DNA from: Escherichia coli
GTDB lineage: Bacteria; Pseudomonadota; Gammaproteobacteria; Enterobacterales; Enterobacteriaceae
NCBI RefSeq assembly: GCF_050920415.1
Contig: NZ_CP169309.1
Strand: one strand, 5' to 3'
Length of the DNA: 64,000 nucleotides
Shown: one piece after another, positions 3,404-42,422 of the stretch
How the letters are laid out: each line of letters begins with the position of its first letter
Position numbering within the stretch: position 1 is the stretch's first letter
The notes under the pieces: model-generated
Databases searched by the model: none
What the model was told of the DNA's origin: nothing
Seen by the model: the letters and a program-made list of their open reading frames with translations, nothing else
Made by a program: the position numbers and the translations under genes

Positions 3404-3831
3404 GGCAAATTAGATTTGAAGTAGTTAATGACGCCGTGAAAGAAAATGCTATCAGGCAGATAAGGGAAATACAGCCTGATAGCAAAAGCCCGCTGATAAT
3501 TACCATCCAGGAGAAAACCCGCTCACTAAGCCAAAATGCGTTGCTTTGGGCGCTGCTAACCGACATTAGCGATCAGGTTAATTGGTACGGCAAGAAGCTG
3601 TCTCCGGAAGACTGGAAAGCGGTATTCACTGCCGGACTTAAGAAATATGGCGTCGTCCCTAACCTGGATAAATCCGGCTTCGTTGTATTGGGAACGTCTA
3701 CAAGCCGGATGAGCAAATCGGAATTCAGTGAACTAATCGAATTAATTTACTCGTTCGGTGCTGAACATAATGTCCAATGGTCGGGTGATACGAAATTAAA
3801 TGAGGAATTCATAAAACGCTGGGGGCAATAA
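3400..3831 (+). CDS. NinB-like recombination protein (lambda Orf/NinB family)
   Basis: 143 aa; pattern IQEKTRSLSQNALLWALLTDISDQVNWYGKKLSPEDWKAVFTAGL resembles lambda NinB as recalled from memory. Confidence 0.7.
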   Translation: MRQIRFEVVNDAVKENAIRQIREIQPDSKSPLIITIQEKTRSLSQNALLWALLTDISDQVNWYGKKLSPEDWKAVFTAGLKKYGVVPNLDKSGFVVLGTSTSRMSKSEFSELIELIYSFGAEHNVQWSGDTKLNEEFIKRWGQ

Positions 3832-4667: not shown

Positions 4668-4897
4668 TGGATAAAACCGCGACATTGTTATTGACTACGG
4701 CACGAATAAGGGAAATGCTCGGAGGAATAAGTAGGACAACATTCAGAGTATGGAAAATGAAATGGGAAGCGGCTGGAACACCATTTCCTGAACCGCTTCA
4801 CGAATTATCAACTACGTCGCGCCCTGTATATCGTTATCAAGATGTAATGCAGTTCTTTAAGTCAGTAGGCTTGCTTTCTGATACTGATAAAACGTAA
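4664..4897 (+). CDS. Putative excisionase / AlpA-family DNA-binding protein
   Basis: 77 aa; helix-turn-helix-like TTARIREMLGGISRTTFRVWK; lies next to the integrase; start overlaps the upstream stop (ATGA). Confidence 0.45.
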   Translation: MMDKTATLLLTTARIREMLGGISRTTFRVWKMKWEAAGTPFPEPLHELSTTSRPVYRYQDVMQFFKSVGLLSDTDKT

Positions 4898-6057
4898 TTA
4901 GCCCATAATTCCGCAGCGTCTTTCTGTTCTTCTACATAATCATATCTGTCATAAACTCCTAATACTCCGCCCAGGGTATGGCCCAACATTTTTTCGGCTA
5001 CCTGGGCGGTCACGCCTAATGCCGCTAAATGCGTGCGGCACGTCCGGCGCAAATCATGCGCAGTAAAACCCGCCTTAAATCCAATTTCATTACTAAGCCT
5101 TGTCGCTAGTCTTGTGCACACAGCTTTATCCATTGGTTTACCATCCAGCGACAATACCGCAGGGAAAACTATGTCGAAGTTGTGACAATTAAACATCATG
5201 CTTAATAGCTCGACGCTTAACGTTGACAGGCCGCGCGTAAACCGCTTTTTGTTTTTGGATAGTTCCGCAGGAATATTCCATACCCTGTTATTGAGATCAA
5301 AATGTTCACGCTTTGCTAGCCTCAATTCTACCGTCCTGCATCCTGTTAATAGCAGTAGTCTGAAGAATGTCATATTGGCCTTAGACATAAAATCGCCAGT
5401 CGTAAAACGCCAGAATTCCCCTACTTCCTCGCCAGATAAATATCTGTCGATCTTGCGCGGCGGTTTGCCAACGTCTTCCACTCGCAACAAGCGGATCTCG
5501 TTGTCTTTTACTATCCCTTTCCTTTGCGCCATAGCGACAATGGATTTCATGCGTCGTAACATCGCGCCAGCCTGTACCGGATGGCCCGCTTTCGTTATCT
5601 CTGAGAATATTGCCTCCCACGCCCTTGCGTTAATGTCATCCACAATAAAATCGCCATACCTCTTGATTATGTGCTTTTGTAAGTTTTGCTTGATCTCTTT
5701 GTATCCCTTAATTTCCCTGGTCGTCTGTTTATTAAGATAGTTGTTAACGATATCGCTAACGGTTGCTCTCGCCCTCGCCTCTTCAATGCGCTGCTTCTTA
5801 GCAAGTCCGGGATCTTTGCCGTCTGCTAATATCGCCTTGCACTCAATTACCGCTAGCCTGGCTTCCTTTAGCGTCATTATGCCATAGTTGCCTAGCTTCA
5901 TTCTTTTAGGCTTCCCGTCATACCTGTAGCGATACTGAAACGTAATTACGCCTTTCGGGCTTACCCTTACTGACAGACCGCCGCCATCCGGGATCTCGAC
6001 CGGACCATCATAACTTTTACCGTGGATGCTTCTTAACTTAGTGTCAGATAACGCCAT
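4837..6057 (-). CDS. Site-specific tyrosine integrase (P4 family)
   Basis: 406 aa; N-terminal arm-binding-type region (GLSVRVSPKGVITFQYRYRYDGK), C-terminal catalytic signature HDLRRT...LGH...YDRY. Confidence 0.85.
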   Translation of the reverse strand: MALSDTKLRSIHGKSYDGPVEIPDGGGLSVRVSPKGVITFQYRYRYDGKPKRMKLGNYGIMTLKEARLAVIECKAILADGKDPGLAKKQRIEEARARATVSDIVNNYLNKQTTREIKGYKEIKQNLQKHIIKRYGDFIVDDINARAWEAIFSEITKAGHPVQAGAMLRRMKSIVAMAQRKGIVKDNEIRLLRVEDVGKPPRKIDRYLSGEEVGEFWRFTTGDFMSKANMTFFRLLLLTGCRTVELRLAKREHFDLNNRVWNIPAELSKNKKRFTRGLSTLSVELLSMMFNCHNFDIVFPAVLSLDGKPMDKAVCTRLATRLSNEIGFKAGFTAHDLRRTCRTHLAALGVTAQVAEKMLGHTLGGVLGVYDRYDYVEEQKDAAELWANYVLSVSESKPTDLKNCITS

Positions 6058-6464
6058 AATCGCCCCTTATTTGGTGCACAACATGGTACACAAATCATGG
6101 TTTACGCAATATAACGCAAAAGCGCGCTTGTTTACAGCGAAAACCAGTAAATCTACTAAATTCATGGCGTTAGGGGTGATTTTGCTTGCGTATGTTTACG
6201 CTTGTGCGCGGTATGTAGCATTAGAAAGAGAAATGCTGCTGACCAACAGCGCACAACACGTGACTGAAACAGAGTGCTTCATAAGTTACCCTCAAACCTG
6301 CGTTAATAATCATGCGTAATTATTTGTTTCGCCTTAAAGAAATGCAAACAACTTCCGGCAAAAAAGTGATACGAGATCGATAACATAGCGTTGAAGAAAA
6401 GGATTTGATAATCCGCAAAATTTGCACAACACTGCCTGTAATACTTCCTGAACCAGAGACGATC

Positions 6465-30236: not shown

Positions 30237-31502
30237 TTAATCGCTCAGCGCATCCTGCAATATTTTCATTGCCGCATCGAATTGCGCATCCGGGATGGTC
30301 AGCGGATACAGGAAGCGAATCACGTTGCCGTATGCACCACAGGTCAGCAGGAGCAGCCCCTGCGCCAGCGCGCGTTGCTGGATTTTCTGTGCAATCGCCG
30401 CTGACGGCTCGCCCGTTTGCGGATCGTTAAACTCTGCCGCAATCATCGACCCCAGACCGCGTACCGCCGCGATGGCCGGAACGCTTTCTTTGGCATCAAT
30501 CAACGTATTTGTCAGACGCTGGCCCAGTTGATTAGCGCGTTCACAGAGTGATTCTTTGTCGATAATGTTGAGCACCGCGTGCGCGGCAGCCACCGCCAGC
30601 GGGTTCCCGGCGTAGGTACCACCAAGTCCGCCCGGCGCGGGCGCGTCCATAATATTCGCGTTACCGACCACGCCCGAAAGCGGCATCCCGCCCGCGAGGC
30701 TTTTCGCCATTGTCATTAAGTCCGGCTTATCGGCGTAGTGATCCATGGCAAACAGTTTACCGGTACGCGCAAAGCCGCTTTGCACTTCATCGGCAATCAT
30801 CACAATACCGTGCTCGTCGCACAGGCGGCGAATGGCGGCAACCAGCTCTTTTGGCGCAACGTTGAAACCGCCTTCGCCCTGCACCGGTTCGAAAATAATC
30901 GCCGCCACCTGCTTCGCTTCAATGTCCGATTTAAACAAGCGTTCGATGGCATCGAGGGAGTCCTGCGTTGAAACGCCATGTAAATCTGACGGATAAGGTA
31001 CGTGATACACCGAACCGGGGAACGGGCCGAAGCCGATTTTGTACGGCGCGACCTTTCCGGTCAGCGCCATGGTCATATATGTACGACCGTGGAAGCCGCC
31101 GCTAAACGCAATCACGCCAGGGCGTCCGGTATGGGCGCGGGCGATTTTCACCGCGTTCTCCACCGCTTCCGCATCGGTGGTGAAGAACGCGGTTTTAGCC
31201 TGCCCGCTCACCGGGGCAAGGGCGTTGATTTTCTCCGCCAGGGTGACGTAGCTTTCGTACGGCACAATCTGATACGCCGTGTGGGTAAACTGTTGCAATT
31301 GCTGCTCCACCGCCGCGACCAGATCAGGGTGGCGATGCCCGGTATTCAGCACCGCAATGCCTGCGGCGAAATCGATATATTCGTTGCCCTCTACATCCTT
31401 CAGCGTGGCGTTTTCTGCCGACTGGGCGAAGAAGTTACACATCACGCCAACCCCGCGTGGGGTAGCAGAAAGACGACGCTGATGGAATTCATTGTTGCTC
31501 AT
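30237..31502 (-). CDS. puuE: 4-aminobutyrate aminotransferase
   Basis: 421 aa; class-III PLP aminotransferase sequence. Confidence 0.88.
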   Translation of the reverse strand: MSNNEFHQRRLSATPRGVGVMCNFFAQSAENATLKDVEGNEYIDFAAGIAVLNTGHRHPDLVAAVEQQLQQFTHTAYQIVPYESYVTLAEKINALAPVSGQAKTAFFTTDAEAVENAVKIARAHTGRPGVIAFSGGFHGRTYMTMALTGKVAPYKIGFGPFPGSVYHVPYPSDLHGVSTQDSLDAIERLFKSDIEAKQVAAIIFEPVQGEGGFNVAPKELVAAIRRLCDEHGIVMIADEVQSGFARTGKLFAMDHYADKPDLMTMAKSLAGGMPLSGVVGNANIMDAPAPGGLGGTYAGNPLAVAAAHAVLNIIDKESLCERANQLGQRLTNTLIDAKESVPAIAAVRGLGSMIAAEFNDPQTGEPSAAIAQKIQQRALAQGLLLLTCGAYGNVIRFLYPLTIPDAQFDAAMKILQDALSD

Positions 31503-31539: not shown

Positions 31540-32820
31540 TTAAACGCCCAGACGATCGCGCAGGCTGTAATAAGCCGCGCCCATCGCGGTAAATGGCACG
31601 CGCAGCGTGCGCCCGCCGGGGAACGGGTAATGCGGCAGATTGGCGAAGGCGTCGAAGCGTTCGGCGTCACCGCGCAGCAGTTCAGCAATCAAACGCCCGG
31701 CAAGATGGGTACAGGTGACGCCGTGGCCGCTGTAACCCTGCATGTAATAGATGTTGGTATCAAGGCGATCGAACTGCGGCATGCGCGACAAGGTCAGCAG
31801 GAAGTTGCCCGTCCAGCGGTAATCAATTTTCACGCCCTTCAGCTGCGGGAAGGTTTTCAGCAGTTTCGGCACCACAAGACGCTCAACGTCATCCGGGTCG
31901 CGCGCGCCGTAGACCACGCCGCCGCCGTACAGCAGGCGGTTATCGGCAGTCAGGCGGTAGTAATCAAGAAGATAGTTACAGTCTTCCACACAGTAGTTTT
32001 TCGGGATCAGCGAACGGGCTAAATCTTCCGACAGCCGCTCGGTGGTGATCACCTGCGTGCCGCACGGCATGCTGCGTTTCGCCAGTTCCGGCTCTACTTT
32101 ATCGCCCAGATACGCATTCCCGGCGACAATCACATACTTCGCCGTCACCTGACCATTGGCAGTCCGCACCACGGCTGGCGTGGTGTGCTGGATATGCGTC
32201 ACGGCGGAAAGCTCATACACGCGCCCGCCGTTCAGGCGAATGGCATCGGCTTCACCAATGGCGAGGTTTAGCGGATGAATATGCCCACCGCTGTGATCCA
32301 GCAGCGCACCAGTGTAGCGATCGCTGGCGACCTCGCGGCGAATAGCGTTGGCGTCCAGCAGCTCCAGCTGTTTATTGCCGTAGCGTTCCCAGTTCTCTTT
32401 CTGCTCTTCGAGTGTGGCGAGTTGTTTATCATTCATCGCCACAAACAGGCCGCCGGGGCGATAGTCGCAGTCAATCTGATAACGTTTGATACGTTCGCGG
32501 ATGATCTCGCCACCCTCGAACATCATGCTGCCGAGCATACGGGCGGTATCCATGCCGTAGCTTTTTTCGATAACGTCGATGTCGCGGCTGTAGGAGTTCA
32601 CAAGCTGCCCGCCGTTGCGTCCGCTTGCGCCGAAGCCGATGCGTGAGGCTTCAAGAACCACCACGTCAAAGCCCGCTTCCGCCAGATGCAGCGCGGAGGA
32701 AAGCCCGGTATAGCCGCCGCCGACCACGCAAACGTCGCAGGAAATCGACTCATTCAGCGTGTCGAATGGCGCGTATTTATTCGCACTGGCGGCGTAATAA
32801 CTGCTGGTATGTTCGGTCAT
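31540..32820 (-). CDS. puuB: Gamma-glutamylputrescine oxidase (FAD-dependent)
   Basis: 426 aa; FAD-binding motif VCVVGGGYTGLSSAL. Confidence 0.88.
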   Translation of the reverse strand: MTEHTSSYYAASANKYAPFDTLNESISCDVCVVGGGYTGLSSALHLAEAGFDVVVLEASRIGFGASGRNGGQLVNSYSRDIDVIEKSYGMDTARMLGSMMFEGGEIIRERIKRYQIDCDYRPGGLFVAMNDKQLATLEEQKENWERYGNKQLELLDANAIRREVASDRYTGALLDHSGGHIHPLNLAIGEADAIRLNGGRVYELSAVTHIQHTTPAVVRTANGQVTAKYVIVAGNAYLGDKVEPELAKRSMPCGTQVITTERLSEDLARSLIPKNYCVEDCNYLLDYYRLTADNRLLYGGGVVYGARDPDDVERLVVPKLLKTFPQLKGVKIDYRWTGNFLLTLSRMPQFDRLDTNIYYMQGYSGHGVTCTHLAGRLIAELLRGDAERFDAFANLPHYPFPGGRTLRVPFTAMGAAYYSLRDRLGV

Positions 32821-32821
32821 T

Positions 32822-34309
32822 TCAGGCCTCCAGGCTTATCCAGATGGTTTTCAGTTCGGTGAATTTTTCAAGGGCGTGCAGGGATTTGTCGCGACCGTTG
32901 CCGCTCTGCTTATAGCCGCCAAACGGCACGGTCATATCACCGTCGTTGTAGTTATTGACGAAGACGGAACCGGCTTTCAGGCGGCGACTCATGCGGTGCG
33001 CGCGGGAGAGGTCGCGTGTCCATACCGCCGCGCCAAGTCCGTACTGGCTGTCGTTGGCAAGCTGTAGCGCCTGTTCTTCTGATGTGAAACGCGTGACCAC
33101 CAGCACCGGACCGAAAATCTCTTCGCGGCTTAAGGACGCATTCGGGTCTACATCTACAAAGATGGTCGGGCCGATGGCGGCAGCCAGCTCGGCGTTACGG
33201 CCATCCAGCAGCAGTTGCCCTTTGCTTTCGCCTTCCCGAATAAAGCTATGGACCGAGTCGGCGTGGGCGCAGTCGATTAAGGTGCCCATGGTGGTTGCGG
33301 GATCAAGTGGATGGCCCGGCTGCCAGTTTTGCGCCTGCTGTTTTAACAGGGCTAAGAACTCATCGGCAATGCTCTCTTCCAGCAACAAACGCGTTCCGGC
33401 GATGCACACCTGGCCCTGGTTATAGAAGATACCTGCAGCGGTGGCACTCGCGGCTTTTTGCAGATCCGGGCAGTCAGCGAAAACGATGTTGGCGCTTTTG
33501 CCGCCCGCTTCCAGCCAGACGCGTTTCATGTTGCTGTCGCCTGCATCTTTCAGCAGCTGTTTCCCGGTACGGGTCGAACCGGTAAAGGCGATGGCATCGA
33601 TATCGTTATGACGCGACAGCGCCTGCCCCGCTTCATGACCAAAACCCGTCACCACGTTCAACACGCCATCCGGCAGACCTGCTTCTTTCGCCAGCCCGGC
33701 GAGACGAATCGCGCTAAGCGGTGATTTTTCCGACGGCTTCAGGACGACACTGTTCCCTGACGCCAGCGCCGGGCCGAGTTTCCAGCAGGTCAGCAGCAGC
33801 GGGAAGTTCCACGGTACAATGGCAGCAATCACGCCCACCGGTTCACGCACGATCATCGCCAGGTCATTGCTACTGGTGGTCGCCACTTCGCCATACACTT
33901 TGTCGATTGCTTCGGCGTACCAGCGAATGGCGCGCGCCGCGCCGGGAATATCATCACGCAGACTGTGACGAATCGGTTTGCCGGTGTCGAGCGTTTCCAG
34001 CAGTGCCAGCTCTTCGGCGTTGGCTTCCATTAAATCGGCGAGTTTATTCAGTACCGCTTTACGTTTTGCCGGAGAAGAGAGTGACCAGTCGCCGCGTTCA
34101 AATACGCCGCGTGCTGCGCTCACCGCACGGTCGATATCGACGCTCTTGCCGCGGGCAATTTTCGCCAGCGGTGCCTGGGTGACCGGATCAACGGTTTCAA
34201 AAGTTTCATTTTCCGCCGCAGCAGTATATTCACCGTTAATAAATAAGCGGGTTTCAATGGCGAGACTTAACGTTTTATCCTGCCAGTAAGCCAGATGATG
34301 AAAATTCAT
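32822..34309 (-). CDS. puuC: Gamma-glutamyl-gamma-aminobutyraldehyde dehydrogenase
   Basis: MNFHHLAYWQDKTLSLAIETRLFINGEY...; 495 aa from the internal ATG preceded by AGGAG; aldehyde dehydrogenase family. Confidence 0.85.
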   Translation of the reverse strand: MNFHHLAYWQDKTLSLAIETRLFINGEYTAAAENETFETVDPVTQAPLAKIARGKSVDIDRAVSAARGVFERGDWSLSSPAKRKAVLNKLADLMEANAEELALLETLDTGKPIRHSLRDDIPGAARAIRWYAEAIDKVYGEVATTSSNDLAMIVREPVGVIAAIVPWNFPLLLTCWKLGPALASGNSVVLKPSEKSPLSAIRLAGLAKEAGLPDGVLNVVTGFGHEAGQALSRHNDIDAIAFTGSTRTGKQLLKDAGDSNMKRVWLEAGGKSANIVFADCPDLQKAASATAAGIFYNQGQVCIAGTRLLLEESIADEFLALLKQQAQNWQPGHPLDPATTMGTLIDCAHADSVHSFIREGESKGQLLLDGRNAELAAAIGPTIFVDVDPNASLSREEIFGPVLVVTRFTSEEQALQLANDSQYGLGAAVWTRDLSRAHRMSRRLKAGSVFVNNYNDGDMTVPFGGYKQSGNGRDKSLHALEKFTELKTIWISLEA

Positions 34310-34458: not shown

Positions 34459-35016
34459 TTAAAACGTGGTGGGCGTATGGGCGCTGATAATTCGGCAAAT
34501 ACCTGCCGACGTATTACTGAAACTGTGCGGGATGCCGGTATTAATGGCATAACTTTGCCCCGCGACGAGGTGGTAATCCTGACCATTAATCGTCAGAACA
34601 ATTTCACCTTCCAGTACAGTGCCTATTTCCTCACCCTGATGCTTAATTCTTTCCCCAGTGGTTGTGCCCGGCTGGTAAGTTTCAAAGATCATCGCCAGCG
34701 TGCGATTCGGGTTACCGTTATGAACCAGCTTCATTGACACACCCTGACTGCCCATCTCAATTAAGTCGTCCTGATTAATGACGACCTGTGGCTCATCAGG
34801 TTTTTCCGGCTCGGAAAAGAATTCCGAGAGTGACAGACCATACACCTTCAGCAGCTTTTGCAGCGTACTGATGGCAGGGCTGACTTTATCTTGTTCTATC
34901 GTACTGATAGCACTGTGAGTCAGCCCGGAGAGTTCGGCGGCACGACGTTGTGAAAGCCCCTGCTGCTGGCGGATTTCCGACAAGCGTTTTCCTGGCGCCA
35001 GTCCCTCATCACTCAT
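34459..35016 (-). CDS. puuR: HTH/cupin transcriptional repressor PuuR
   Basis: 185 aa; helix-turn-helix LSQRRAAELSGLTHSAISTIEQDKVSP. Confidence 0.88.
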   Translation of the reverse strand: MSDEGLAPGKRLSEIRQQQGLSQRRAAELSGLTHSAISTIEQDKVSPAISTLQKLLKVYGLSLSEFFSEPEKPDEPQVVINQDDLIEMGSQGVSMKLVHNGNPNRTLAMIFETYQPGTTTGERIKHQGEEIGTVLEGEIVLTINGQDYHLVAGQSYAINTGIPHSFSNTSAGICRIISAHTPTTF

Positions 35017-35042
35017 ATTTGCATTTCCTTAAACTGTAGTGG

Positions 35043-35807
35043 TCAGAGTCGCTGTTTTTCAGCGATATGGTGCTGACAAGCGGTGATAAAGCCCTCGAAC
35101 AATATACGCGAAAGCGCGTACTCGCTACTGTTCCATTCCGGGTGCCACTGTACGCCCAGCGCAAAAGGATGATTGATGACGCTAACCGCCTCAACTAAGC
35201 CATCCGGCGAGCGAGCTTCAACACGCAACCGTGGGCTAACGACCTTCGCCCCTTGTCCATGCAGAGAGTTTACCCAAAAGTTGCTACATTCAGGTAACAG
35301 TGCAGACAGCAATCCCCCCTCTTCAACCTGAACTTCATGCGACGGTGCATATTGCTGTTCCACCGGCAGTTCGGGATCTTCCCGATGTTCCAGCAATTCA
35401 GGCTGTTCGCACAGCTTGCGATGCAACGAACCACCGGTTGCCACCACCAGTTCCTGTAAACCCCGGCAGATGGCGAAAATGGGGATGCGCCTTTCGAGTG
35501 CGGCATTAATTAACGCCATGCTCAGAAGATCACGCCCGGGATCGGCGTCAGGCTCATCGCCGTTTTCACCATATAGGTGCGGCTGCACATTGCTGGGACT
35601 ACCAGGAAGATAAATACCATCGAGTTTCGGCAAAAGTTGTTCAAGTAATGACGGTTCCGCCAGCGCATGTGGCAGCGCAATTGGCAAGCCGCCTGCGTGG
35701 ATGATGGCATTCAGGTACTTTTCTTGCAGAGTCTGGGTCGCATGACCCTTAAGCCTGTTCCTGCACATTACGACACCGATAACCGGATTGTTCATTATAT
35801 TTTCCAT
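35043..35807 (-). CDS. puuD: Gamma-glutamyl-GABA hydrolase (class I glutamine amidotransferase)
   Basis: MENIMNNPVIGVVMCRN...; 254 aa. Confidence 0.85.
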   Translation of the reverse strand: MENIMNNPVIGVVMCRNRLKGHATQTLQEKYLNAIIHAGGLPIALPHALAEPSLLEQLLPKLDGIYLPGSPSNVQPHLYGENGDEPDADPGRDLLSMALINAALERRIPIFAICRGLQELVVATGGSLHRKLCEQPELLEHREDPELPVEQQYAPSHEVQVEEGGLLSALLPECSNFWVNSLHGQGAKVVSPRLRVEARSPDGLVEAVSVINHPFALGVQWHPEWNSSEYALSRILFEGFITACQHHIAEKQRL

Positions 35808-35976
35808 GCTCAATCTCACAAAGTGGACTAAATTATCGCCATTACTGCGCTTTAAATGACCTTTATGTTCAATATTTTTTCAATTTAGCAGCGGGTTTTC
35901 ATTTTTGCAAACTCAATTTAACATTTGACAAACATTTAGTTTGCATACAGATTCGAATGGTGGTCATTATATTTTA
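35790..35976. promoter_or_regulatory. puuD-puuA divergent control region with three copies of a PuuR-box-like motif
   Basis: gttcattatatttt (35790-35803), tgttcaatatttttt (35866-35880) and ggtcattatatttta (35962-35976) share the core TCATTATATTTT; the first overlaps the puuD start. Confidence 0.5.
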
Positions 35977-36018
35977 CGCTTTGATAACGAGCGGAAAACA
36001 AACCAAAGGCGAAGAATC

Positions 36019-37437
36019 ATGGAAACCAATATCGTTGAAGTAGAGAACTTTGTTCAGCAGTCAGAAGAGAGGCGGGGTAGCGCCTTTACGCAGGAAGTGA
36101 AACGCTACCTGGAGCGCTACCCGAATACGCAATATGTTGATGTTTTACTTACCGATCTGAATGGTTGTTTTCGTGGGAAACGTATTCCTGTTTCAAGCCT
36201 GAAGAAGCTCGAGAAAGGGTGTTATTTCCCGGCCTCGGTGTTTGCAATGGATATTCTGGGCAACGTAGTAGAAGAAGCGGGCCTGGGTCAGGAAATGGGC
36301 GAGCCGGATCGTACCTGTGTTCCTGTTCTCGGTTCCTTAACCCCATCTGCTGCAGATCCTGAGTTTATCGGTCAGATGCTCCTGACCATGGTCGATGAAG
36401 ATGGCGCTCCCTTTGACGTTGAGCCGCGGAACGTTCTTAACCGCCTGTGGCAGCAGCTACGCCAGCGCGGATTGTTCCCGGTTGTAGCGGTAGAGCTGGA
36501 GTTCTATTTACTGGATCGCCAGCGCGACGCTGAAGGGTATCTGCAACCGCCCTGCGCGCCCGGCACCGATGACCGCAATACACAAAGTCAGGTTTACTCC
36601 GTTGATAACCTCAACCACTTCGCCGACGTGCTCAATGATATTGATGAGCTGGCGCAGTTACAGCTGATTCCGGCAGATGGCGCGGTCGCCGAGGCCTCGC
36701 CAGGTCAGTTTGAAATCAATCTTTACCATACCGATAACGTGCTGGAAGCTTGCGATGATGCGCTGGCACTAAAACGCCTGGTGCGTCTGATGGCAGAAAA
36801 GCATAAGATGCACGCCACTTTTATGGCGAAGCCGTATGAAGAGCACGCGGGCAGCGGGATGCATATCCATATCAGTATGCAAAATAATCGTGGCGAGAAC
36901 GTGCTTTCTGACGCGGAAGGCGAAGATTCGCCGCTGCTGAAAAAGATGCTCGCCGGGATGATTGACCTGATGCCGTCATCAATGGCGTTGCTGGCACCAA
37001 ACGTGAACTCGTATCGCCGCTTCCAGCCGGGGATGTATGTACCGACGCAGGCGTCGTGGGGCCATAACAACCGCACCGTCGCCCTGCGTATTCCCTGCGG
37101 CGATCGCCATAATCACCGCGTGGAATATCGCGTGGCGGGTGCCGATGCCAACCCGTATTTGGTGATGGCAGCGATTTTTGCCGGTATTTTGCACGGTCTT
37201 GATAACGCGCTGCCGTTGCAGGAAGAAGTCGAAGGCAACGGGCTGGAGCAGGAAGGCTTACCCTTCCCGATTCGCCAAAGCGATGCCCTGAGTGAGTTTA
37301 TCGAGAACGATCATCTACGCCGCTATTTAGGTGATCGCTTCTGCCATGTCTATCACGCCTGTAAAAATGATGAGCTGTTGCAGTTTGAGCGCCTCATCAC
37401 AGAAACAGAAATTGAGTGGATGCTCAAAAACGCGTAA
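36019..37437 (+). CDS. puuA: Glutamate-putrescine ligase (glutamine-synthetase family)
   Basis: METNIVEVENFVQQSEERRGSAF...; 472 aa. Confidence 0.88.
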   Translation: METNIVEVENFVQQSEERRGSAFTQEVKRYLERYPNTQYVDVLLTDLNGCFRGKRIPVSSLKKLEKGCYFPASVFAMDILGNVVEEAGLGQEMGEPDRTCVPVLGSLTPSAADPEFIGQMLLTMVDEDGAPFDVEPRNVLNRLWQQLRQRGLFPVVAVELEFYLLDRQRDAEGYLQPPCAPGTDDRNTQSQVYSVDNLNHFADVLNDIDELAQLQLIPADGAVAEASPGQFEINLYHTDNVLEACDDALALKRLVRLMAEKHKMHATFMAKPYEEHAGSGMHIHISMQNNRGENVLSDAEGEDSPLLKKMLAGMIDLMPSSMALLAPNVNSYRRFQPGMYVPTQASWGHNNRTVALRIPCGDRHNHRVEYRVAGADANPYLVMAAIFAGILHGLDNALPLQEEVEGNGLEQEGLPFPIRQSDALSEFIENDHLRRYLGDRFCHVYHACKNDELLQFERLITETEIEWMLKNA

Positions 37438-41460: not shown

Positions 41461-42422
41461 TTATCTTCACCTTACGCCGCATTTTGTTATTGATTGTCAC
41501 CTTGTTCCTGCTGACGTTCGTTGGCTTTAGCTTGAGCTATTTCACCCCACATGCGCCGTTACAAGGCGCGTCACTGTGGAATGCCTGGGTGTTCTGGTTT
41601 AACGGCCTGATCCACTGGGATTTTGGTGTTTCCAGCATTAACGGTCAACCGATTGCCGAACAGTTAAAAGAGGTCTTCCCGGCGACGATGGAACTGTGCA
41701 TCCTCGCCTTCGGTTTTGCGCTGATTGCTGGCATCCCCGTAGGAATGATTGCCGGGATTACGCGCCATAAGTGGCAGGATAACTTGATCAACGCCATCGC
41801 CTTACTGGGCTTTTCAATCCCGGTGTTCTGGCTGGCGCTTCTGTTGACGCTGTTTTGTTCACTCACGCTAGGTTGGTTGCCCGTTTCAGGGCGTTTCGAT
41901 CTGCTCTACGAAGTGAAACCGATTACCGGTTTTGCGTTGATTGATGCCTGGCTTTCGGACTCACCGTGGCGGGATGAAATGATCATTAGCGCAATCCGTC
42001 ATATGGTATTGCCCGTGATCACCCTGTCGGTTGCGCCAACAACTGAAGTGATCCGACTAATGCGTATCAGCACTATCGAAGTGTATGACCAGAATTATGT
42101 AAAAGCGGCGGCGACCCGCGGTTTGTCACGCTTTACTATTTTGCGTCGCCACGTTCTGCATAACGCGTTACCTCCGGTTATTCCTCGCCTGGGCTTACAG
42201 TTTTCCACCATGCTGACGCTGGCAATGATCACCGAAATGGTCTTTAGCTGGCCGGGTTTAGGGCGCTGGTTAATTAACGCCATCCGCCAGCAAGATTACG
42301 CGGCCATTTCCGCCGGAGTGATGGTGTGTGGCTCACTGGTCATTATTGTTAACGTGATTTCTGATATTTTGGGTGCCATGGCTAACCCTCTGAAACATAA
42401 GGAATGGTATGCCTTACGATAG
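41457..42422 (+). CDS. sapB: ABC permease SapB
   Basis: 321 aa; 4-nt overlap with sapA. Confidence 0.9.

Follow-up and report, generated by a model that had tools for sequence, protein, structure and literature searches.

Repression of divergent promoters from several operators by a regulator that senses a small molecule is a familiar arrangement, for example in the deo and gal control regions. In Escherichia coli, the spacer between puuA and puuD is controlled in this way. Three papers that cite Nemoto et al. 2012 (PMC9951944, PMC9397018, and PMC9068703) summarize the action of PuuR: it binds to the spacer, represses both puuA and puuD (and hence puuR), and comes off the DNA when putrescine is high. 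One of them, PMC9951944, again with reference to Nemoto et al. 2012, puts the number of PuuR DNA-binding motifs in the spacer at four. In the heterologous host Corynebacterium, repression by PuuR alone reached 36-fold for the full-length puuD promoter and 6.9-fold for a truncated version, and it was relieved by putrescine (PMC9951944). Because the full-length promoter was repressed more strongly than the truncated one, these data suggest that several boxes contribute. The PuuR operator (puuO) is also functional when transplanted into synthetic promoters (PMC11683335). A second regulator, ArcA, directly represses operons including puuA and puuDR (Park et al. 2013, PMC3798270). We found that the repeated motifs described below are the already known PuuR operator set of E. 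coli K-12 (Nemoto et al. 2012), so that their identification is correct but ordinary. A dyad symmetry of the boxes and a candidate fourth box are small refinements to this picture.

We analyzed a 64,000-nucleotide stretch of E. coli DNA, referred to here as the window. The gene tables identify the segment flagged in it as the divergent puuD/puuA control region. The minus strand carries puuE (30237-31502), puuB (31540-32820), puuC (32822-34309), the cognate repressor gene puuR (34459-35016), and puuD (35043-35807), which encodes gamma-glutamyl-GABA hydrolase with a Peptidase_C26 domain and is the first gene of the puuDR... operon. Divergent from puuD on the plus strand is puuA (36019-37437), encoding glutamate-putrescine ligase with a Gln-synt_C domain, with ymjE and puuP further downstream. 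The repressor had been described as encoded just downstream of the motifs, and puuR indeed lies immediately downstream of puuD. Its 185–amino acid product contains HTH_3 (E value 6e-15) and Cupin_2 (6e-19) domains according to a domain search, and it is identical to K-12 PuuR at 185 of 185 positions (100%). Among solved structures, there was no PuuR or PuuR-DNA entry, and only distant XRE HTH domains matched.

K-12 MG1655 is reportedly the strain used for the published PuuR binding experiments. Over ~280 aligned bases comprising the 211-bp spacer and its flanks, only bases 35885 and 35892 of the window differ from this strain. Neither is part of a motif, and all boxes are identical to those of K-12. 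Because the spacer differs only at these two positions, neither of them in a motif, the K-12 experiments apply directly to the window. At 35885, which falls inside the putative puuD -10 hexamer, the window has T and K-12 has C.

A 1.1-kb piece around the motifs (35000-36100), with annotated puuR, puuD, and puuA, had a megablast match at 95 to 100% identity in 4371 of 5426 complete E. coli genomes. Six of the matches to the puuR-puuD-puuA segment were plasmid-borne. Because the other 1055 genomes gave no match, the puu cluster appears to be missing in roughly one-fifth of sequenced E. coli strains. In NZ_CP169399.1, from a strain with a puu region 100% identical to that of the window, the annotation lists mppA (~4670-6282) as a pseudogene with a frameshift. 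An 8-nt inverted repeat without mismatches, TTTCCATG at 35801-35808 and CATGGAAA at 36018-36025, is present because puuD and puuA both start with ATG GAA A on opposite strands.

The initial annotation had reported three copies of a 14- to 15-bp A+T-rich motif, one of them inverted. Three copies of the 15-mer TGTTCATTATATTTT are indeed present, at 35789-35803 (no mismatch), 35961-35975 (one mismatch), and 35866-35880 (two mismatches). These are the only matches with at most two mismatches in the 64-kb window, and all of them fall within 187 bp. The 12-mer TCATTATATTTT occurs in exactly two exact copies in the 64 kb (35792-35803 and 35964-35975), with a third, diverged copy, TCAATATTTTTT, at 35869-35880. 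A repeat finder joined the three copies into a single family of direct repeats spaced by 77 and 95 bp. Since every copy is on the plus strand, the claim of an inverted copy was mistaken. The statement that the first copy overlaps the puuD start codon was right only in part: the 15-mer at 35789-35803 covers codons 2 to 6 of puuD (GAA AAT ATA ATG AAC, including the in-frame ATG of Met5) and adjoins the annotated ATG (35807-35805, minus strand), whereas the 18-bp box at 35789-35806 touches two bases of the start codon.

Repeats of this kind could arise by chance in A+T-rich intergenic DNA of low complexity. The A+T content here is 67%, and at loose thresholds the counts over the whole window were only mildly above those expected from shuffles, being 10 versus 5.8 for the 12-mer with up to two mismatches and 6 versus 2.0 for the 15-mer with up to three. 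However, when 2000 composition-matched sequences were simulated with a first-order Markov model (240-bp region, 67% A+T), an exact direct repeat of at least 12 nt appeared in 1.4% of them, and a three-copy 15-mer family with up to two mismatches appeared in just one. In addition, the three best matches of the 64 kb are clustered within 187 bp, and their position and sequence are conserved across genera in which PuuR is 76 to 100% identical. This conservation effectively refutes chance, to which we assign a very small probability. The repeated motif is real and non-random.

The primary study of 2012 reportedly defined a 15-bp PuuR recognition consensus, AAAATATAATGAACA. Read on the opposite strand, the sequence at 35789-35803 reproduces this reported consensus exactly. 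Measured against the same string, the copies at 35789-803, 35961-975, and 35866-880 carry zero, one, and two mismatches, respectively. Full-text literature searches with the consensus string and with sub-strings of the boxes returned nothing relevant, the primary 2012 paper lying outside the searchable texts.

For a cross-species comparison, one genome per species was scanned with PuuR as the query. This yielded 80 loci from Escherichia, Klebsiella, Citrobacter, Enterobacter, Raoultella, Cedecea, Franconibacter, Hafnia, Erwinia, Pantoea, Serratia, Rahnella, and other genera, with PuuR proteins 76 to 100% identical to that of E. coli. Nearly all loci keep the same order of puuA, a spacer of ~212 bp, and puuD-puuR. 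When 50 distinct spacers were aligned, the three motifs lay within islands of conservation. Across the 43 non-Escherichia orthologues, the mean information content was 1.91, 2.06, and 2.10 for the islands of boxes X (the candidate fourth box, described below), B, and D, respectively, with a maximum of 2.32, as compared to 1.26 for spacer columns outside the conserved blocks. The initial annotation had named a lack of conservation in orthologous regions as a result that would refute it; we found instead that both position and sequence are kept across 76 distinct orthologous regions from Enterobacterales.

A weight-matrix scan, which had been proposed as a further check, gave a concordant result. 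When a matrix derived from non-Escherichia sites only was applied to all positions of the window on both strands, the three sites ranked first, second, and third. They correspond to box A (TGTTCATTATATTTTCCA, 35789-35806, score 24.9), box B (TGTTCAATATTTTTTCAA, 35866-35883, score 22.9), and box D (TGGTCATTATATTTTACG, 35961-35978, 41 to 58 bp upstream of the puuA ATG, score 21.0, or 17.3 on the other strand). The best score elsewhere in the window was 15.1. This site (3759-3776, inside ynaI) and another scoring 14.5 bits (42337-42354, inside sapB as judged by the sapA/sapB coordinates) are intragenic and were treated as probable chance matches. A scan of the puu cluster found no further PuuR boxes upstream of ymjE/puuP, puuC, puuR, or puuE, where the best scores were at most 2.6 bits.

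Together, the boxes identical to those of K-12, the 100% identical PuuR, the conservation across genera, and the published binding to this spacer bear out the proposal that the motifs are operator sites for PuuR. We put the probability that the three motifs and the weaker fourth are PuuR operators at about 0.9.

Box A requires separate consideration. It occupies codons 1 to 6 of puuD, corresponding to +71 to +88 of the puuD transcript. Coding constraints and the general tendency toward A+T-rich gene starts are partial confounders of its conservation. It might be kept solely by coding or translation-initiation constraints at the 5' end of puuD, in which case only the intergenic copies would be operators. 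The location within the first six codons fits this explanation, as does the CA end of the box, which is forced by the ATG start codon; A+T-rich gene starts are, moreover, generally favored for translation. However, the N-terminal peptide of PuuD varies between orthologues (MENIMN, MGNIFD, and MVDIFY), whereas the DNA core ATATA is fixed. Codon 4 (35796-35798) is the rare isoleucine codon ATA in 58 of 59 distinct orthologues, although ATA accounts for 10% of isoleucine codons elsewhere in the gene. Codon 3 ends with T in all 59, while AAT makes up 28% of asparagine codons elsewhere. The variable peptide, the fixed DNA core, and the retention of ATA point to selection on the DNA itself, with the operator apparently constraining codon choice, although phylogenetic non-independence and the A+T-rich gene-start preference weaken this interpretation. 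Furthermore, box A exactly matches the reported PuuR consensus, and it survives in a short remnant open reading frame (ORF) of Serratia loci that lost puuD. We therefore regard coding constraints alone as a very improbable explanation and favor box A as a PuuR operator.

The Serratia loci were found in many genomes of this genus, which carry a second, paralogous puuA-puuR locus without puuD (L058, L059, L062, L064-L066, L068, and L070-L075). About 70 to 145 bp upstream of puuR, these loci keep the puuD start, ATGGGCAATATATTTTCC (box A), which heads the short remnant ORF, and boxes are also present at the X, B, and D positions. Judged from these sequences, the operator set persisted after the overlapping gene was lost.

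In the cross-species comparison, the conserved unit was 18 bp long and dyad-symmetric, with the symmetrized consensus TGnnnAATATATTnnnCA. The matrix correlated with its own reverse complement at 0.82 in the correct register and at 0.27 when shifted by one base in either direction. At the individual sites, the dyad correlation was 0.70 for box A, 0.53 for box D, and 0.24 for box B, while the other 18-bp windows of the spacer had a mean of 0.01 (SD 0.2). The best dyad window outside these three boxes was TGGACTAAATTATCGCCA at 35824-35841 (correlation of 0.61), which we refer to as box X. It lies in the puuD leader, at +36 to +53, within the conserved island with an information content of 1.91. 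The symmetrized matrix was scored against an A+T-rich background, and boxes were called at 5 bits or more. With this cutoff, the window contains exactly four boxes, namely, A (19.4 bits), X (8.2 bits), B (15.7 bits), and D (18.6 bits). Subtracting window positions from 1396927 converts them to K-12 coordinates, which are 1361121-1361138 for A, 1361086-1361103 for X, 1361044-1361061 for B, and 1360949-1360966 for D. Exactly four boxes were also found in 62 of the 76 distinct orthologous spacers, and 57 of these 62 have start-to-start spacings of 34 to 36, 41 to 42, and 94 to 96 bp in common.

Box X is weak in E. coli, and the matrix that picked it had been trained on boxes A, B, and D. The probability that a random A+T-rich 18-mer attains its score of 8.2 bits is about 2e-4 per position. 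The same position scores 13 to 17 bits in other genera as compared to 8.2 in E. coli; sequences much nearer the consensus are present there in Serratia (TGTTCGAAATTATGAACG, 13 bits) and in a Pantoea locus (TGTTCAATATATCAACCA, 16.8 bits). With box X included, the count would match the published four, and box X is a candidate for the published fourth site. This weaker box had been missed in the initial annotation, which counted three motifs. Two other candidates for the fourth site were ruled out: 35893-35910 (TTTTCATTTTTG) is unconserved outside Escherichia, and 35906-35923 lies inside the ArcA operator and scores below 5 bits with the symmetrized matrix.

The odds appear even to us that PuuR operators are 18-bp dyad-symmetric boxes (with TGKNMAWTA and TAWTKNMCA as the two halves) rather than asymmetric 15-mers, forming a fixed set of four across Enterobacterales. 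If this is true, such a set would imply the binding of PuuR as a dimer and possibly cooperative or looped repression enclosing both promoters and the ArcA operator. With 42 bp corresponding to 4.0 turns and 95 bp to 9.05 turns at 10.5 bp per turn, boxes X, B, and D are approximately in phase on the helix. According to a recent paper (PMC12645834), the PuuR site is non-palindromic, and evidence for a dimer is lacking. This statement counts against the dyad refinement but not against PuuR binding. Our cross-species data suggest otherwise with regard to palindromy and dimer binding, which would amount to a modest refinement and not to a new kind of system.

The position of the puuD promoter follows from published work on ArcA. 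The ArcA site, ATGCAAACTAAATGTTTGTCAAATGTTAAATTGAGTTTGCAAA, consists of four repeats and was mapped between -70 and -28 relative to the start site of puuDR (PMC3798270, supplementary files 3, 4, and 6). Its reverse complement is found at 35904-35946, which locates the ArcA operator, with its four direct repeats on the minus strand, between boxes B and D and overlapping none of the PuuR motifs. The operator, an element separate from the PuuR boxes, accounts for the other block of strong conservation in the spacer. The block also contains an inverted repeat, TGCAAACTCAAT/ATTTAGTTTGCA, and overlaps both putative -35 hexamers.

Because the ArcA site was placed at -70 to -28, the start site of puuD is implied to be 35876 on the minus strand, with the puuD ATG at +70. 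The predicted puuD promoter (35876-35910, minus strand) has a -35 hexamer TTGCAA (35910 to 35905) and a -10 hexamer TAAATT (35887 to 35882). Both hexamers are conserved, the 17 bp between them are not, and the start site at 35876 agrees with this placement. The -10 hexamer reads TAAATT in the window and TAGATT in K-12 and most genera. Because the derived start site is 35876, box B, at about -7 to +11, lies over the puuD -10/+1 region. For puuA, a promoter may be located at 35925-35953 on the plus strand, with -35 TTGACA (35925-35930), -10 CAGATT (35948-35953), and a start near 35960, which would place box D at about +2 to +19. The -35 hexamer hardly varies, and other genera have TAAATT, TAGATT, or TACATT as the -10. 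A scan for promoter consensus matches did not report this puuA promoter, and Park et al. 2013 give no puuA start site (PMC3798270).

These positions bear on a further explanation, in which the motifs are not specific to PuuR but represent generic A+T-rich promoter features (-10–like TATAAT/TATATT or UP elements) or sites for ArcA, H-NS, Fis, or IHF. TATAAT is present on the minus strand in boxes A and D, and the one promoter-like match returned by the scan makes use of the copy in box A. The region is indeed bound and repressed by ArcA, and box B contains TTCAAT-N5-TTCAAT, reminiscent of direct repeats spaced by 11 bp. However, the published ArcA operator overlaps no box. In box A, the promoter-like match is directed into the coding sequence of puuD, and the single match found compares with 0.8 expected from shuffles. 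The promoter that fits the published start site is elsewhere, with its -10 at 35882-35887. Searching for sigma-70 hexamers at 16- to 18-bp spacing that would drive puuD or puuA and be the sole cause of the repeats gave only this single consensus match. Moreover, the specific 18-bp pattern occurs four times with fixed spacing wherever puuR is present, including at the paralogous locus, and PuuR alone represses this DNA in Corynebacterium. Generic promoter elements or other proteins are thus hardly a plausible source of the motifs, and PuuR operators remain our preferred reading.

On the basis of these data, we propose the following model for the PuuR operators. PuuR, a putrescine-responsive XRE-HTH/cupin repressor encoded two genes away, would occupy the four boxes across the back-to-back puuD and puuA promoters when putrescine is low. 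Box B would block RNA polymerase at the puuD -10/+1, and box D, at or just past the putative puuA start, would block initiation or escape at puuA. Boxes X and A would add occupancy downstream, over the puuD leader and start codon, respectively. Jointly, the boxes would block initiation or early elongation of both operons, that of puuR itself included. Binding of putrescine to the cupin domain would then release PuuR and de-repress both operons. Each 18-bp dyad may be bound by a PuuR dimer, and the helical phasing of X, B, and D would allow cooperative contacts, so that cooperativity or looping is conceivable. ArcA would act independently through its own operator between boxes B and D.

The locus reveals no new biology, as experiments reported in 2012 established PuuR binding to the spacer, and putrescine biosensors already make use of it. 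The practical gains are small: a cleaner 18-bp symmetric operator model, a candidate weak fourth site, and a map that places every box with respect to the start site of puuD and the ArcA operator. They could aid the design of minimal PuuR-responsive promoters and genome scans with a better matrix.

The closest described system is that of the K-12 PuuR boxes, or puuO (Nemoto et al. 2012), with which the window shares the locus, a 100% identical regulator, and identical boxes. The two differ in nothing substantive, as the changes at 35885 and 35892 lie outside the boxes; what sets the present description apart is the cross-species reading of the boxes as 18-bp dyads with a proposed fourth site. 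The ArcA operator (Park et al. 2013, PMC3798270) resembles the PuuR boxes in being a strongly conserved, A+T-rich repressor site within the same spacer. In contrast to them, it is a separate element built from TGTTA-type direct repeats at 11-bp spacing, which is not the PuuR pattern. In a wider sense, the puu region resembles the deo and gal control regions. Its several operators are spread over about 190 bp, some on the -10/+1 and others downstream, PuuR regulates its own gene, and more operators lead to stronger repression (36-fold versus 6.9-fold). It differs from that class in its regulator, as PuuR belongs to a different protein family, combining an XRE HTH with a cupin domain.
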